Part shown: piece after piece, positions 26,852 through 30,813 of the stretch | Position numbering within the stretch: position 1 is the first letter of the stretch | Layout: every line of letters begins with the position of its first letter | Origin: Vulcanimicrobiota bacterium | GTDB lineage: Bacteria; Vulcanimicrobiota; Vulcanimicrobiia; Vulcanimicrobiales; Vulcanimicrobiaceae | DNA: 64,000 bases | NCBI GenBank assembly: GCA_963714015.1 | Contig: OY970223.1 | Coordinates: 1,696,001 to 1,760,000 of the forward strand | Reading direction: 5' to 3' | Position numbers and translations under genes: made by a program | Notes under the pieces: generated by a model | Database searches by the model: none | Told to the model about the DNA's origin: nothing | Seen by the model: the letters and a program-made list of their open reading frames with translations, nothing else

Positions 26852-26930
26852 GTTCCGTCCCAATGGTGATTGGCTAGCCGATACAGGCTAGCCAATTCTC
26901 CATTGGCCACCATGGCCGGAAGGACGGAAC
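26852..26930 (+). promoter_or_regulatory. Multi-stem structured leader or palindromic operator upstream of the lipopeptide gene
   Basis: GTTCCGTCC/GGACGGAAC, CCAATGG/CCATTGG and ATTGGCTAGCC/GGCTAGCCAAT nested pairings. Confidence 0.55.
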
Positions 26931-26934
26931 ATTT

Positions 26935-27156
26935 ATGCGCAACCTCTTGCCCATTGCAGCGCTCGCGGCTTTAATCGGAACGCTGGCCGCGTGCGGCTCC
27001 GCCGACGTTCTCCCGCAAACTCGTCTTCAAAAGACTCCGCTCTCTCATCGCTACCCAAGCAATACCGGTAAGCGGTCCACCGGCAAGTCACCGATCATGC
27101 CGGATGTGGTTCCGACGCCGTCGCCGCCCGACTCGGGCGGTTCCATGCCGGGCTAG
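26935..27156 (+). CDS. Small exported lipopeptide (73 aa)
   Basis: RBS AAGGA, signal peptide with lipobox LAAC, low-complexity linker, C terminus PDSGGSMPG. Confidence 0.75.
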   Translation: MRNLLPIAALAALIGTLAACGSADVLPQTRLQKTPLSHRYPSNTGKRSTGKSPIMPDVVPTPSPPDSGGSMPG

Positions 27157-27176
27157 AGCCGGTCTTTTGGGCCTCG

Positions 27177-27206
27177 TGGCGGCGGGTAAGCACTAACCCG
27201 CCGCCA
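27177..27206 (+). terminator. Hairpin between the lipopeptide gene and the regulator
   Basis: TGGCGGCGGGT-N8-ACCCGCCGCCA, 11-bp perfect stem, weak U tail. Confidence 0.5.
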
Positions 27207-27219
27207 TAATCTTCCCGAG

Positions 27220-28758
27220 ATGCCCAAAACGCGCCGGGTCGATCGATCGTGGGAATTCCGAATGTCCGCCGCTTTCGAAAGCGCCGAGTTTGGCGAAGCT
27301 TCGGCGATCTTCGTCGAAGCGGTGAAAAACGGCGCACGCCCCGACATTGGGACGACGCTCCTCCAAGGCCGCACGCTGCTCAAACTCGACGCGGACAAAG
27401 CTGTTCCGTTCCTACTGAAAAACCACGCGCGCGAAGCTTCCGGTGCGGTTCGCGGACGGTGGCATTTATATCTTGCAATTGGGTTTGCAAGATTGCGCGA
27501 GTTTGCACAGGCTGACGAGCATTTCGCCGCGGCGGAACGCGAGTTCAAAGGACGTCGGGAAGGTTTGGCCGAGATTTCCTATCAGCGCGTGCGCCGGTAT
27601 TTGCTCGAACAGGATATTCCGCGCGCGTGGCGTTTTTGGGATGAAGCGGCAAAAGATCCTTCGCGCCTCGGGGCGATTCGCGCAGAACAGCTGCGATCGT
27701 TTATCTATGCATTTGAAGAAAACTATGTCGAGCAGGCGCGCTGCGTCCTGAAGGTCCTGGATCTCATCGGCACCGATCGCCGATCTGCAATTGAGGAATG
27801 GTGCACCTCCGTCCATACTGCCTCCGTTCTCGCGCGAGAACTCTCCATGAAAGATCTCTGGGTGCGAGCCGAAGCTGAGGTCAACGCCGACGTGCAATGG
27901 CCGGAGTTTTATAGCGCCGCCAAATTCCAGGCGTTCAAGGCAGTGGGATGGTGCCGCGCGCTTCAGGGTGACGGCCTTGGATGTTTCCGGTATCTTCGGG
28001 CCGCGCAGCTTGCGGCGCCGTCGGCAGCGTATTCCGTCATCGTTTTGCTGGACCGGGCCTACTTCGCCGGGACTCTAGGTGAAGAGCGGTGGGCCGCAAA
28101 CGAACTAGCTTCAGCCGAGGAACTCGCCGGCGGCGTCGATTGGGATGCCACTACGGAGGACGAGCGCGTGGGCTTGCTGCTGCTGGCGCAGCTCAGCGCA
28201 CCCCTCGACAGCACTCGGGCGGCCTACTATTTGGCGCGCTTCAAAAACCTGGGACGATTGCGCTCGAATCTGCACCACTTTGCATTCGATCGACGCTTGG
28301 ATGCGATTGCGGCGTACAGCGCCGGCGTCGTGAAGAGCGTGGAGGGAGATGCGGAGCAAGCCCTCGAGCAATTTCGTTCGGCTTGGGCGACATTCGATCG
28401 CATCCGGTACGATTGGCGCGCGGGCCAAACGGCGATACAGCTTTTTAGGTTAACTCAAAAAAACCGCTGGCGTTTACTGGCTGAAGAGAAACTCGAGCTT
28501 TATCGGTTTTCGTGGCTGATTCGGGGGTTTGGCTCCGGCGCAGGCGACCCAGCGCATTCAGTACCGGCGCTGACGCCTATGCAGGATCGGATCTTCCGGC
28601 TGATTTGCCAGGGCCGCACGACCCAGCAAATCTGTACGGAACTAGGTCGCGCCGACAATACCGTGCGCAACCACGTGAAGGCGATATTCAAAGCGTTCGG
28701 CGTGAACACGCGAGCATCGCTGGTCGCCGAAGCCGTTCGCCGCGGTTTGGTGAGATAA
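27220..28758 (+). CDS. LuxR-family regulator with long N-terminal TPR-like helical domain
   Basis: C-terminal LTPMQDRIFRLICQGRTTQQICTELGRADNTVRNHVKAIFKAFGV; about 450 aa of Ala/Leu/aromatic helical repeats; no receiver or P-loop motif seen. Confidence 0.85.
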   Translation: MPKTRRVDRSWEFRMSAAFESAEFGEASAIFVEAVKNGARPDIGTTLLQGRTLLKLDADKAVPFLLKNHAREASGAVRGRWHLYLAIGFARLREFAQADEHFAAAEREFKGRREGLAEISYQRVRRYLLEQDIPRAWRFWDEAAKDPSRLGAIRAEQLRSFIYAFEENYVEQARCVLKVLDLIGTDRRSAIEEWCTSVHTASVLARELSMKDLWVRAEAEVNADVQWPEFYSAAKFQAFKAVGWCRALQGDGLGCFRYLRAAQLAAPSAAYSVIVLLDRAYFAGTLGEERWAANELASAEELAGGVDWDATTEDERVGLLLLAQLSAPLDSTRAAYYLARFKNLGRLRSNLHHFAFDRRLDAIAAYSAGVVKSVEGDAEQALEQFRSAWATFDRIRYDWRAGQTAIQLFRLTQKNRWRLLAEEKLELYRFSWLIRGFGSGAGDPAHSVPALTPMQDRIFRLICQGRTTQQICTELGRADNTVRNHVKAIFKAFGVNTRASLVAEAVRRGLVR

Positions 28759-28984: not shown

Positions 28985-30242
28985 TTATGATTCTCGGGTG
29001 TGGTGCCGGGTGTGGGCGACCTCCGTCAGCCGATCGACGCGCTTCAATTCCGGGAACAGCTTGATCCACAGCCCGATCACGGCGAGCGTCGCAGCGCCTC
29101 CCAAAACGACTGAGGCTTGAGGGCCGATCAGCGCCGCTACGCCGCCGGATTCAAAGGCGCCCAATTCATTGGACGCGCCGATGAAGATGTTCTCCACGCC
29201 GCCGACTCGTCCGCGCAGATGGTTCGGCGTGCCGAGCTGAACCAAAGCGGAGCGCACGACGACGCTGACCATGTCGAAAGCGCCGGTGAGTGCCAGAGCA
29301 AAAACCGAAATTGCGAAATTGCGCGAAAGGCCAAAGGCGATAGTCGCAAGGCCAAACCCCGAAACACATGCAATGAGCAGCGGACCGGCACGGCGCGAGA
29401 TGCTGTGCCGCGCTATATATAGGGCAACGAGCGCCGCTCCAAAAGCCGGCGCCGCGCGTAGAATCCCGAACCCCGTTGCGCCGACGTGGAGCACGGCCGT
29501 TGCGAAAATCGGAAGCAGCGCCGTTGCTCCGCCGAACAACACCGCGAAGAGATCGAGTGAGACGGCGCCGAGAATGACGCGCCGTGAGAAGATGAAGCGG
29601 ATGCCTTGGACCGCTGCAACGAGCACCGGTTCGTCGTGCGCTTCGATTGCATGCGGTTCGAGCAGCGCGAACGCCATTGCGGCGACGACGTATGCTCCGG
29701 CCGCTGCAATGAACGCAAAGCGGGTTCCCAGCGCAATAAGCACACCCCCTACCGCAGGTCCTGCAATCCCGATGCAGCTGCGTTATCGACGAAGAGAACG
29801 CCTGAGCGCGGGCAAAAGATTGATGTGGTACGACGTTGATGAGCAACGAGCGCTGCGCCGGAATTCCGGCGGCATGCGCAATACCAGCTACGGCCACCGC
29901 CAAAAAATACCACGCGGCATCGCGGACGTGCACCGCGATCAGCACGGCGAATAGAGCCAGGCCGCACGCCTCGGCAATGGACGATACTACGCAGATAAGG
30001 CGGCGATCCGCGCGGTCGGCCAGCACGCCGGCCGGGAGCGCCAGAAGCAGCTGCGGCATGAACAGGATGAGGCCCACCAGCCCTAAGTCGAAGGCGCTAT
30101 GGCGCAGAGAGTAAATCTGCCAGCCGACAGCCGTGTCCTCGATGGTAAACGCCGCAACCGCGCTCTGACGCGCAAGAAAATATCGGTAGAATTCGGCGCC
30201 GAATACGGGTTTGGGCGAGCCGTGCGACGTAGGAGCGCTCAT
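28985..30242 (-). CDS. MFS transporter (EntS/MFS_3-like), frameshifted near 29774
   Basis: AVGWQIY, AGVLADRADRR, then LDLFAVLFGGATALLP, LRGRV, SNELGAFESG in a second frame. Confidence 0.85.
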
Positions 30243-30813
30243 GCGTAATTCTTTAACTGTAGTATTGTTTGCAGCCGCAGCCCTGCCCCTCAGCGCAATT
30301 GCCGCGATGCAAACGTGGACCGTCGACCCTGTGCACTCTACCGCCCAGTTCACAGCTCGGCATTTCGGAATCGTCCCGGTGATCGGAACCATTCCGATTC
30401 AATCAGCGGCCGTCAAACTCAACGAGGGGAGCCCGATCCCCGTATCAGTTTCCGCCATTCTCGATCCGACGCAGCTCGATACGCACAATTCGATGCGCGA
30501 CGGCGATCTCCGATCCGACCATTTTTTCGACGTTACGACGTATCCGGCAATGACCTTCAGCAGTACCAAGATAACCGGCACCGATCCTAAACAGTTCACG
30601 ATTCAAGGCGACCTGACGATGCGCGGCCAGTCGCATCCCGTAACCCTTGCTGCTCAAGTCATCGCTTCGGGAAAATCACCGAAGGGCCGTGAAATTATTG
30701 CATACGGTGCCACGGGTACCATCGATCGCACCCAATGGGGCATGACGTTCGGGCCGATGATCGTCGGCAACAGTGTCGACATCTCCTTGAATATCGAGGC
30801 CGACGGACCGTAG
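30241..30813 (+). CDS. yceI: YceI family lipid/polyisoprenoid-binding protein
   Basis: WTVDPVHS, RDGDLRS..FFD..YP, GDLTMRG, IDRTQWG; RBS AGGAG. Confidence 0.9.
   Translation: MRNSLTVVLFAAAALPLSAIAAMQTWTVDPVHSTAQFTARHFGIVPVIGTIPIQSAAVKLNEGSPIPVSVSAILDPTQLDTHNSMRDGDLRSDHFFDVTTYPAMTFSSTKITGTDPKQFTIQGDLTMRGQSHPVTLAAQVIASGKSPKGREIIAYGATGTIDRTQWGMTFGPMIVGNSVDISLNIEADGP

Follow-up and report, generated by a model that had tools for sequence, protein, structure and literature searches.

A candidate peptide-signaling cassette in Vulcanimicrobiaceae: a small exported precursor beside a TPR-like regulator with a LuxR-type DNA-binding domain

Introduction

Within the 64,000-nucleotide stretch of Vulcanimicrobiota DNA analyzed here (the window), a small ORF with an export-type N-terminus lies directly upstream of a gene for a helical-repeat regulator with a C-terminal LuxR-type DNA-binding domain (Table 1). 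The question raised by this arrangement is whether the small ORF supplies a peptide that its neighbor senses, as a sequence-only reading of the locus had proposed, or is simply a gene that the regulator controls. The question has some bearing on the distribution of such signaling among bacteria, as intracellular-receptor peptide signaling is presented as a Firmicutes or Gram-positive trait in the accessible part of a 2026 review (PMC13220807), and the RRNPP_detector survey, according to the portion of its text at hand, scanned only Firmicutes and viruses (PMC10075063). The literature on LuxR/TPR peptide systems and on quorum sensing in Eremiobacterota, judged from titles and the beginnings of abstracts, describes no such system, and the available text of the description of Vulcanimicrobium alpinus mentions neither 'quorum' nor 'LuxR' (PMC9758169). 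The host was rightly taken to be diderm in the sequence-only reading: its own genome encodes Omp85, pointing to an outer membrane in the lineage, and a Gram-negative envelope is reported for a cultured relative in the accessible part of the same description (PMC9758169).

Table 1. Features of the peptide-regulator locus, with positions counted from the first nucleotide of the window
Feature	Position	Strand	Basis
Operator-like inverted repeat, two 8-bp palindromes GGCTAGCC	26860..26906	.	Arm complementarity
Shine-Dalgarno-like GGAAGGA, 10 nt 5' of the small-ORF ATG	26918..26924	+	Sequence reading
Small ORF, putative exported (lipo)peptide precursor	26935..27156	+	73 aa
Signal peptide and lipobox L-A-A-C, residues 1-20, predicted lipidation site Cys20	26935..26994	+	Sequence reading
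Conserved C-terminal motif D66-S-G-G-S-M-P-G73, candidate mature peptide	27130..27153	+	Alignment, uniqueness, codons
GC-rich intergenic hairpin, then TAATC	27177..27206	+	14-nt arms, 93% complementary, 2 nt apart
Regulator, 512 aa	27220..28758	+	ORF, Pfam, homologues, model
TPR-like superhelical sensor domain, residues 10-441	27247..28542	+	Structure model
GerE/LuxR-type helix-turn-helix DNA-binding domain, residues 447-507	28558..28740	+	Pfam GerE match at residues 450-503

The Small ORF and Its Conserved Motif

Read directly, the N-terminus of the small ORF consists of one Arg, a hydrophobic stretch and the lipobox LAAC, while the linker that follows contains 6 Lys/Arg and the C-terminal end reads P-D-S-G-G-S-M-P-G-stop; the lipobox, basic linker and distinctive tail attributed to this 73-aa ORF from the sequence are thus all present. 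The genome also encodes Lgt and LspA. Residues 1-21 match the LptM model NF047847 of NCBIfam below threshold (E 0.011; 15.8 bits against a cut-off of 27.7), and the match spans the signal peptide and lipobox only, NF047847 being a model of lipoprotein signal and mature N-termini. A search with the small-ORF sequence across 61 relatives gave one meaningful match (G003, E 3.9e-4), located directly 5' of a regulator orthologue, the remainder being noise (E > 0.009). Because the ORF is too short and variable for sequence search, neighborhoods were read instead.

Relatives of the small ORF occur in 62 public clusters, labeled 'hypothetical protein' and carrying no Pfam family. An alignment of 33 partners shows no variation at D66, G68, or G69 and at least 90% conservation of P72, and the codons of the motif vary synonymously, including exchange between the TCN and AGC families of Ser codons, so that the predicted conservation of a D-x-G-G-x-x-P tail is borne out at the level of protein. 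Precursor lengths differ by whole codons and by whole motif repeats. The Shine-Dalgarno word GGAAAGGA, or a near variant, occupies the same position in most of 35 class A/A2 loci (read by eye, uncounted). Comparative evidence of this kind establishes the small ORF as a real gene, conserved at the protein level, with an N-terminus of predicted Sec/SPII type. In many class A precursors the hydrophobic N-terminus contains no Lys/Arg, and export is therefore less certain in those.

In a six-frame translation of the whole 3,562,638-base genome, the strict motif D[SGTN]GG.[MLVIF][PT]G occurs once, in this ORF. Related motifs were found no more than 400 nt upstream of regulator homologues at 41 of the 104 evaluable loci, with 50 matches upstream of regulators versus 2 in the approximately 1.15 million six-frame residues that make up the rest of these loci, an association beyond chance. 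The motif stands at or near the C-terminus of the precursors, many of which contain 2-7 tandem copies (for example three in L012, L020, and L027; two in L013, L023, L029, and L133; seven in L035); the two features together give the layout expected for a polypeptide from which a peptide is released. The place of the motif depends on class, being C-terminal in classes A, A2, and C and directly after the Cys in class B. It follows the lipobox Cys immediately at 14 loci, and at 2 further loci, as well as in two paralogues from the own genome, the motif is close to the N-terminus of a DUF4382 lipoprotein of 320-360 aa; these positions are a poor fit to a released C-terminal peptide.

Motif type follows regulator clade, with 20-21 label changes on the tree versus a shuffled mean of 52. 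The core motif is almost unchanged between regulators of only 43-51% identity, a diversification below that of most RRNPP pherotypes, and some other constraint could be acting on it. As a general lipoprotein sorting signal, neither Gly-Gly-x-Pro nor [LVM][LMV]Px[TS], the word that follows the lipobox of many partners, proved universal: 286 lipobox candidates in the own genome, many of them in spurious frames, included GGx(1-2)P in 34 cases and [LVM][LMV]Px[TS] in 17, the crude lipobox regular expression making this a weak test.

A TPR-Like Regulator

Pfam recognizes a single family in the regulator, GerE (PF00196; residues 450-503, E 3.1e-7), and LuxR-type HTH models of NCBIfam match at the C-terminus only, that for MalT covering just residues 450-505 and those of TraR and PA1136 type just the HTH. 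Matches to NarL, ErdR, and others in NCBIfam and the PDB are limited to residues 433-511 and include no receiver domain. No receiver, ATPase or autoinducer-binding family was detected (Pfam, E <= 0.01; NCBIfam, E <= 0.1), in line with the absence of receiver, ATPase and AHL-binding motifs remarked upon in the sequence-only reading. Helical repeats begin as early as residue 10, and neither database reports a NOD/AAA ATPase family. The structure model is all-helical, with about 11 helix pairs spanning residues 10-441 and preceding the HTH, and the sensor consists of the TPR-like superhelix alone, with no further sensor domain. Invariant residues of the regulator are W227, D278, R279, E288, W308, W399, and R400.

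The N-terminal fold had been expected to be TPR-like, and the modeled superhelix does align with the solved peptide receptors Rap, AimR, and NprR, and best with MalT domain III, although TPR superhelices of every kind score high in such alignments. This best match is a sugar binder and not a peptide binder. Foldseek against the PDB returned only generic TPR superhelices (TM 0.2-0.39), nothing more informative than 'TPR-like'. Some regulator homologues have precomputed hits to PF13424 or PF13176, and in a profile search of solved structures the family profile matched consensus TPR proteins with an E of 3.6e-11. No RRNPP chain was present among the 60 best of 108 matches (E <= 1) from the profile search, and no RRNPP receptor family of Pfam or NCBIfam matched the regulator. 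Cofolding of regulator residues 1-445 with residues 40-73 of the small protein, run without controls, gave scores of 0.01 and 0.02, where the mark is 0.32, and speaks neither for nor against binding.

Pairing of the Two Genes

The small ORF and the regulator gene are direct neighbors, and both the 63-nt gap before the regulator ATG (27220) and the 512-aa helical-repeat protein with its C-terminal LuxR HTH were correctly described from the sequence. Across homologues, adjacency of the predicted sort was recovered: 67 of 97 nonredundant regulator loci have an export-type neighbor with a short Gly/Pro motif when classes are assigned by eye, and an automatic adjacency criterion yielded 52 of 97, compared with 8 of 400 long ORFs drawn at random from the own genome. 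The pairing is retained down to 25-30% regulator identity, with the partner upstream on the same strand, divergent, or downstream. As flanking genes vary between loci, only the pair is kept, and the flanks of 15 loci (23 ORFs) contained no other conserved gene that would be a ligand-related candidate.

At 28 of the 97 loci no partner gene was found, and in a clade of 13 regulators the peptide gene has been lost while the operator is kept before the regulator itself. Individual genomes contain several paralogous peptide-regulator pairs. The two-gene unit is kept throughout one family of Eremiobacterota, a soil phylum, and the sensor domain was found almost exclusively in one Eremiobacterota family (169 of 206 genomes).

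Operator-Like Repeats and Other Genomic Context

The two copies of GGCTAGCC upstream of the small ORF (26872-26879 and 26886-26893) are 6 nt apart and are embedded in a longer imperfect palindrome, the inner arms of which (26869-26879/26886-26896) are 100% complementary and the outer arms (26860-26869/26897-26906) 90%. A paired RGCTAGY word was seen at the same position upstream of the small ORF in most of 35 class A/A2 loci (read by eye, uncounted); the regular expression [GAT]CTAG[CTA] N5-11 [GAT]CTAG[CTA] matched in class A at 16 of 36 loci and in class A2 at 4 of 5. The word GGCTA shows a 4-7 fold enrichment upstream of class A, A2, B, and N regulators. The location of a conserved GGCTAGCC pair before the peptide gene suggests autoregulation. 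Furthermore, the site of the Cybelea-like clade lies just downstream of a TTGACC-16 nt-GATAAT promoter, which suggests repression by the DNA-bound regulator and release by the peptide, the sign of this regulation not being established. There are only two instances of the arrangement GCTAGC N5-10 GCTAGC in the 3.56-Mb genome, each next to a member of this regulator family, and consequently no output regulon is visible.

The second paired GCTAGC site is at genome position 2694731, approximately 170 nt past the 3' end of the paralogue P4, and no small export-type ORF was found beside it.

A GC-rich hairpin followed by (C)TAATC occupies the same place in most of 35 intergenic sequences (again by eye, uncounted). 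The hairpin of this locus lacks a T run and was therefore missed by a simple terminator scan; its role may be to terminate or attenuate the peptide transcript, or it may belong to the regulator promoter. The own genome contains at least 9 SBP_bac_5 genes, so that finding one immediately upstream in L134 and in L027 does not clearly exceed chance. A search of sequencing runs returned one DNA run with a small share of the words and no RNA run.

Proposed Mechanism and Alternative Explanations

The locus is read here, with confidence that is evenly balanced, as a two-gene autoregulatory peptide-signaling cassette, RRNPP-like in function and built from unrelated, nonhomologous parts. The precursor would be exported and tethered through lipidated Cys20, and proteases would release the C-terminal octapeptide DSGGSMPG from it. 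The peptide might then accumulate outside, recross the outer membrane and enter through an Opp/Dpp-type permease, after which it would bind the cytoplasmic regulator on the concave face of its TPR-like domain and alter DNA binding by the GerE/LuxR HTH. Recognition of the paired GGCTAGCC, which lies between the promoter of the peptide gene and its ribosome-binding site, would close a feedback loop, a step that the conserved DNA supports. Genes for functions on which the route would draw are present in the genome: Lgt, LspA, Omp85 and at least 9 SBP_bac_5 genes. The receptor-peptide pairing put forward in the sequence-only reading is supported on comparative grounds: three kinds of contrary observation were sought, namely homologues without adjacent small secreted ORFs, a tail that is not conserved, and an N-terminal domain of another fold, and none of these refuted it.

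A broader reading is more tentative, its prospects falling a little short of even. According to this reading, one family of Eremiobacterota (Baltobacteraceae/Vulcanimicrobiaceae) would use ribosomal peptides as cell-cell signals, derived from exported, often lipoprotein-type and often multi-copy precursors and detected intracellularly by a receptor particular to the lineage, in which a MalT-domain-III-like TPR domain is combined with a LuxR HTH. Quorum sensing of the RRNPP type would thus have been invented independently in outer-membrane bacteria, with parallel channels in each genome (DxGGxMPG, DxGGGLPP, C-NTNGGIPA, xPPY, DNFGGVL, and others) and a receptor-only 'solo' clade listening in.

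The main alternative, a serious possibility although a somewhat doubtful one, is that the TPR-LuxR regulator senses another cue, such as a small molecule or protein partner, and controls the exported neighbor as its output without feedback. The output would be an envelope or extracellular factor acting by way of its short Gly/Pro motif, which might, for instance, attach to an envelope machine, a metal or a surface. Operator-like repeats before the partner gene indicate regulation and not sensing, the top structural match is the sugar-binding domain III of MalT, and the 13-member clade retains regulator and operator without the peptide, all of which are in agreement with such an output. So are the strong conservation of the core motif across genera and the partners that carry the motif directly after the lipidated Cys or are whole lipoproteins with DUF4382 and CarboxypepD_reg domains. 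Control of an output leaves unexplained, however, the tandem motif copies, the variable linkers and the last copy at the very C-terminus, as well as why most partners comprise only a signal peptide, a disordered linker and the motif, and why paralogous regulators of one genome each keep their own motif class. Nor is another ligand-related candidate gene conserved nearby.

It is improbable that the small ORF encodes the precursor of a secreted bioactive peptide (bacteriocin- or RiPP-like, metal-binding) with the regulator acting as a pathway-specific activator. The short precursor with its leader-like N-terminus, the multi-core repeats in places, the Gly-rich tails and the several precursors that end in His would be in keeping with this function, but the surroundings of the pair (15 loci, 23 flanking ORFs) showed no conserved modification enzyme, dedicated exporter, immunity gene or protease, and the conserved unit is only 7-9 residues long and has no Cys/Ser/Thr pattern typical of RiPP cores. 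That the small ORF is no gene at all, the conserved element being regulatory DNA or RNA upstream of the regulator, is highly improbable. Conserved DNA elements do exist in the region, in the form of the operator-like repeat and two hairpins, but the frame, export-type N-terminus and motif have all been preserved amid variation at third codon positions and in Ser codon families, the ribosome-binding site is conserved, lengths vary by whole codons and whole motif repeats, and relatives are called as genes in the 62 public clusters.

If the cassette does signal as proposed, a diderm phylum would have arrived at the same logic independently, starting from MalT/LuxR-type parts, and a widespread, almost uncultured lineage of soil and peat would have its first candidate communication system. 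The short, unmodified and synthesizable peptides, together with a matching operator, would make the proposal testable by a few in vitro assays, and the cassette might find further use as an orthogonal sensor. Should the main alternative hold, the locus would still represent a regulator family that is undescribed and restricted to the lineage, together with a predicted DNA site and target genes.

Relationship to Known Systems

Each half of the cassette has parallels elsewhere. Small lipoproteins, such as those of the LptM model NF047847, are similar to the precursor in general build (lipobox, short conserved motif, disordered tail), but here the conserved motif is different and is linked to a regulator. 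The regulator resembles MalT/LAL (STAND) proteins in combining a TPR-like sensor, comparable to MalT domain III, with a C-terminal LuxR HTH, whereas the N-terminal NOD/AAA ATPase that defines that family is missing and the protein is approximately half the size of MalT. The ligand of MalT is maltotriose, and MalT is not known to have an adjacent peptide gene. With AHL-type LuxR receptors and LuxR solos the regulator has in common the C-terminal GerE/LuxR HTH and the logic of an autoregulatory palindromic operator, and the peptide-less clade of 13 is similar in layout to LuxR solos. In contrast to AHL-type receptors, there is no autoinducer-binding domain (Pfam, E <= 0.01) and no LuxI-type synthase, and the sensor is a 430-residue TPR-like domain.

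Enterococcal sex pheromones are cut from lipoprotein precursors, namely from the signal peptide, and are sensed by a cytoplasmic RRNPP-type receptor. The likeness to the present case is a lipoprotein precursor as the source of a signal; the difference is that the conserved element here is in the mature part.

The closest functional comparison is with the RRNPP systems themselves (Rap/Phr, NprR/NprX, PlcR/PapR, PrgX, Rgg/SHP, and AimR/AimP), which are found in Firmicutes and their phages and plasmids. The signature used by RRNPP_detector, as given in the accessible part of its description (PMC10075063), comprises a propeptide of 10-100 aa with a Sec (SPI/SPII) signal recognized by SignalP or PrediSi and, encoded by a neighboring gene, a receptor of 250-500 aa that matches a TPR HMM with E < 1e-5 and coverage > 65%. 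Propeptides of 73 aa here and 41-85 aa among the 33 aligned partners are within this size range. The regulator departs from the signature in having no Pfam TPR family at E <= 0.01. Its length is 512 aa from the first ATG and 498 aa in public calls, which start 14 codons later; the first ATG is probably the true start, because orthologues preserve M-x-K ... W-x-x-x-M when their N-terminal extensions are translated. No sequence similarity of the regulator to RRNPP receptors was found (Pfam, NCBIfam, and the 60 best of 108 profile matches to solved structures), and its HTH is C-terminal and of GerE/LuxR type where theirs is N-terminal and of XRE type. The host is diderm, lipoprotein precursors account for many of the propeptides, the motif is commonly repeated in tandem, and peptide binding is a prediction. 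The peptide-regulator unit looks like an undescribed peptide-signaling system in outer-membrane bacteria.

A conserved two-gene module

Positions 1,696,001-1,760,000, the window, are part of a single-contig genome of 3.56 Mb. The sequence-only reading had described a lipobox-containing small ORF next to a 512-aa LuxR-HTH protein in which no receiver, ATPase or AHL-binding motif was evident, and every detail of this architecture was confirmed from the sequence, Pfam and NCBIfam. A GerE/LuxR HTH at residues 447-511 is the sole family that these databases place on the regulator, with no receiver, ATPase or autoinducer-binding domain reported by either. Close homologues and 80 related loci place it in Candidatus Eremiobacterota / Vulcanimicrobiota, in the family with Cybelea, Aquilonibacter, Tumulicola and Tyrphobacter. 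Convergent with the regulator is an MFS_3/MFS_1 transporter gene, apparently split by a frameshift into overlapping ORFs; Pfam MFS matches come only from the 252-aa ORF and not from the 408-aa ORF, and the split reflects either a pseudogene or a fault in the assembly.

Features of the peptide precursor-regulator locus and its convergent neighbor (window coordinates)
Feature	Position	Strand	Description
Paired palindromes	26872-26893		two GGCTAGCC, 6 nt apart, within a longer inverted repeat, 42 nt upstream of the small ORF start
Small ORF	26935-27156	+	73 aa
Small ORF, N-terminus			one Arg, hydrophobic stretch, lipobox L-A-A-C (Cys20)
Small ORF, linker after lipobox			basic, Pro/Ser/Thr-rich
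Small ORF, C-terminal end			D-S-G-G-S-M-P-G
Gap between the two ORFs			63 nt
Hairpin in the gap	27177-27206		GC-rich
Regulator ORF	27220-28758	+	512 aa
MFS gene, apparently split	28985-30392	-	
MFS, first ORF	28985-29743		252 aa
MFS, second ORF	29166-30392		408 aa, another frame

Partners of the regulator homologues

Of 110 loci gathered (the own locus, 29 from relatives and 80 from genome contigs), nine whose regulator is short or broken (L025, L026, L034, L068, L096, L100, L112, L135, L139) and four duplicates (L088, L102, L122, L124) were dropped, and partner classes were assigned to the remaining 97 by eye from their neighborhoods.

Partner classes of the 97 regulator loci
Class	Loci	Partner
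A	36	upstream same-strand ORF, 41-100 aa, D-[SG]-G-G-x-M-P-G or close variant; degenerate in L075 and L083 (2/36)
A2	5	D-x-G-G-G-[LF]-P-P
B	14	divergently transcribed lipoprotein, 51-184 aa; N-T-N-G-G-I-P-A or E-S-[HN]-G-G directly after the lipobox Cys, then a Pro/Thr/Ser-rich tail
C	7	other repeated units: DTLGGGPV x3, EGSHPPY x3, DGTLPPY x2, SGGGQPPY x2, and others
D	2	lipoprotein, 320-360 aa, KD[ST]LGG[VI]P near the N-terminus; one locus (L022) from an unpublished genome
E	3	downstream
U	2	locus cut by contig end
N	28	none found

These assignments agree with three tests independent of the eye. Across the own genome, 7.1 million residues in six frames, the strict motif appears a single time. 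A motif regular expression has 50 matches in the 400 nt of same-strand sequence preceding the regulator, spread over 41 of 104 evaluable loci; the remaining six-frame residues of the evaluable loci, about 1.15 million, yield 2. By automatic criterion, 52 of the 97 regulators are preceded by an export-like small ORF with a GG..P-type word, versus 8 of 400 long ORFs drawn at random from the own genome, which upholds the expectation that regulator homologues would be accompanied by a small export-type ORF. Public gene callers predict relatives of the small ORF in 62 clusters, all 'hypothetical' except one that is evidently misnamed, and none with a Pfam domain.

On trees of the 97 regulators (FastTree, IQ-TREE), the classes require 20-21 changes versus a shuffled mean of 52, a value reached in 0 of 200 shuffles. 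Because kin share labels, this match shows co-inheritance of motif class and regulator, not co-evolution. The clade of the window's regulator comprises 33 rows, 30 with the motif, two degenerate and one unevaluable. Flanking genes, surveyed as 23 ORFs at 15 loci, vary (glycosyltransferases, phosphoesterases, a Na/H exchanger, SpoIIE-type phosphatases), and at these loci the pair alone travels together. Some members of the set L083, L093, L107, L108, L110, L115 and L132 come from bins labeled Acidobacteriota (Acidiferrales, Acidoferrum) or Rhodospirillales; their regulators nest within Eremiobacterota clades, and mis-binned contigs are a more likely explanation than transfer.

Precursor conservation and layout

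Conservation of the C-terminal tail, as the sequence-only reading had anticipated, is pronounced: D66, G68 and G69 never change across 33 aligned class A/A2 partners and P72 reaches at least 90% conservation, all other positions being variable. Codons at the conserved positions differ synonymously, with Ser encoded as TCN or AGC, and selection therefore acts at the protein level. The motif lies at the extreme C-terminus here, as does the last copy in the xPPY and DNFGGVL precursors; in many precursors the motif is repeated in tandem 2-7 times with short variable linkers in between, and most partners amount to no more than a signal sequence, the motif and a disordered linker. The own genome encodes Lgt, LspA, an Omp85 protein and at least nine family-5 solute-binding proteins of the Opp/Dpp kind, and the cultured relative is bounded by a Gram-negative envelope that includes an outer membrane (PMC9758169). 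The C-terminal motif, tandem copies, minimal precursor and export and uptake genes point to a released peptide.

An Opp/Dpp-type family-5 gene lies directly upstream of the pair in L134 (497-2131) and L027 (213-950), and probably in L133, a placement not clearly above chance. Several class A precursors (examples are L060, L063, L066, L082, L085, L136, L031 and L089) close with a Gly-rich tail whose last residue is His, and in most Cybelea-like precursors a His is conserved about 20 residues in (F-T-H-F-G-G). A second word, [LVMF]-[LMV]-P-x-[TSGA], recurs 5-15 residues after the lipobox Cys in lipobox-type partners (residues 25-29 of the small ORF; L089, L091, L092, L094, L131, L013, L020, L023, L027, L032) and occurs in only 17 of the 286 crude lipobox candidates counted across the genome; it may serve in processing or sorting.

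Fold and distribution of the regulator

A confident AlphaFold2 model of the regulator (46-sequence alignment A1; mean pLDDT 93.7, pTM 0.84) contains about 11 helix pairs at residues 10-441 and a four-helix HTH at 453-507. Foldseek returned generic TPR superhelices only; in structural alignment the best match, MalT domain III, was followed by LGN (21.7), RapI (20.0) and peptide-bound phi105 Rap (17.9), with AimR (17.1) and NprR-NprX (16.8) further down. The family profile matched solved consensus TPR proteins (E 3.6e-11) and GerE (E 4.7e-13). From these fold comparisons and profile matches, the regulator resembles a MalT/LAL protein from its sensor to its C-terminal LuxR HTH, roughly the second half of such a protein, and lacks the STAND ATPase.

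The sensor domain is lineage-restricted: only 512 of 1.84 billion cluster representatives match at E <= 1e-3, 336 of them also at E <= 1e-10. Within the phylum, in tallies that take in unpublished genomes, it is present in 172 of 301 genomes including the own genome; excluding that one, matches occur in 169/206 genomes of family f1, 1/3 of f2, 1/22 of f3 and 0/69 of 18 further families, usually at one to five or more per genome. The own genome has five places that resemble the sensor domain, two of them interrupted by frameshifts, and two paralogues there have a class D-like partner (DUF4382 + CarboxypepD_reg). At 3,420,686-3,424,735 (-) (L002, L005, L007) this lipoprotein-regulator pair is tandemly duplicated and the second regulator copy is broken into two frames; a further paralogue at 1,317,836-1,318,707 (-) (L003, L006) is likewise broken.

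Operator-like DNA

Most of the 35 class A/A2 loci listed, as read and not counted, have a paired RGCTAGY word at the same position ahead of the peptide gene. In the Cybelea-like clade it lies directly downstream of a TTGACC-16 nt-GATAAT promoter, and after it come a second hairpin and a conserved GGAAAGGA ribosome-binding site. GCTAGC is rare in the own genome (226 observed versus about 1170 expected), and it is paired at only two sites, the one here and a second at 2,694,731, about 170 nt past the 3' end of paralogue P4. The latter faces a membrane/Pro-rich protein of 253 aa that is encoded convergently, and its surroundings yielded no small export-type ORF.

A 13-member sister clade without the peptide gene (L093, L095, L097-L099, L101, L103, L107, L109-L111, L113, L115) retains the paired word, here 76-135 nt ahead of the regulator gene, L101 being the one member without it directly upstream; no conserved ORF intervenes. 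The word is present in 12 of 28 class N loci. In L093, L097 and L110, which were read through, a divergent AraC-type HTH gene lies upstream and a conserved ORF of unassigned function downstream. Class B intergenic regions contain repeated GGCTA-type words, and in classes A, A2, B and N GGCTA/TAGCC shows a 4-7x enrichment over the 450 nt that precede the regulator (4.8-8.0 versus 1.05-1.33 per kb), with no such enrichment in classes C, D and E. Because the sequence itself is conserved, beyond self-complementarity, a putative protein-binding site for the adjacent GerE-type HTH is favored over a mere RNA hairpin, and the paired palindromes and upstream words point to probable autoregulation. A lipoprotein of about 150 aa, with no Pfam family and with a conserved P-P-Q-L-L-Y-P-I-P-G-A-T-G-V-P-D-G-N-F-like stretch and a P-S-P-L-P-S-P-I-A-T-P-like one, recurs beside or downstream of class B regulators (L019, L116, L117, L120, L126, L129, L132, L137) and beside paralogue P3 in the own genome; it may be a further target.

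Possible mechanism and alternatives

The pair is a real, strongly conserved, lineage-specific module, and its interpretation as a peptide-signaling system is about evenly poised between right and wrong. The precursor would be exported, here as a lipid-anchored protein, and cleavage would release the C-terminal octapeptide, which would accumulate, be re-imported and bind the TPR-like domain, altering operator occupancy so that the peptide gene feeds back on its own expression. That the operator follows the -10 element suggests repression by the regulator in its DNA-bound form. The reality of the small gene, its conservation and adjacency, the fold and the conserved DNA words are established by the comparisons, whereas export, cleavage, import, binding, the sign of regulation and any output regulon are inferred. 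Only two paired operators exist in the own genome, and therefore no output of a putative regulon is visible.

The main competing explanation, a serious one though somewhat improbable, is that the regulator senses another cue and controls an exported small protein. It draws on a sugar sensor being the closest fold, the 28 of 97 regulators for which no partner was found, a core motif that is unusually constant across genera, the class B motif adjoining the lipidated Cys and the class D motif inside a large lipoprotein, as well as the mere two operators. At the 15 loci whose flanking ORFs were surveyed, no conserved enzyme, exporter or immunity gene accompanies the pair, making a bacteriocin- or RiPP-like product very unlikely. 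That the small ORF is a non-coding element is hardly credible, being contradicted by motif conservation, public gene calls and synonymous codon variation.

Comparison with known systems

No description of such a system was found in literature searches covering listings, the beginnings of abstracts and text from PMC10075063, PMC13220807 and PMC9758169. MalT/LAL regulators are defined by an ATPase that is absent here. The regulator is not an RRNPP family member by descent, nor is the cassette so related. Of the five criteria of RRNPP_detector (PMC10075063), the small precursor and the direct adjacency agree outright, the predicted lipobox-type export signal and the 512-aa regulator length (250-500 aa in the signature) come near, and the TPR-HMM criterion fails on this protein, on which no Pfam TPR family reaches E <= 0.01. 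Functionally, RRNPP cassettes are the closest known systems.
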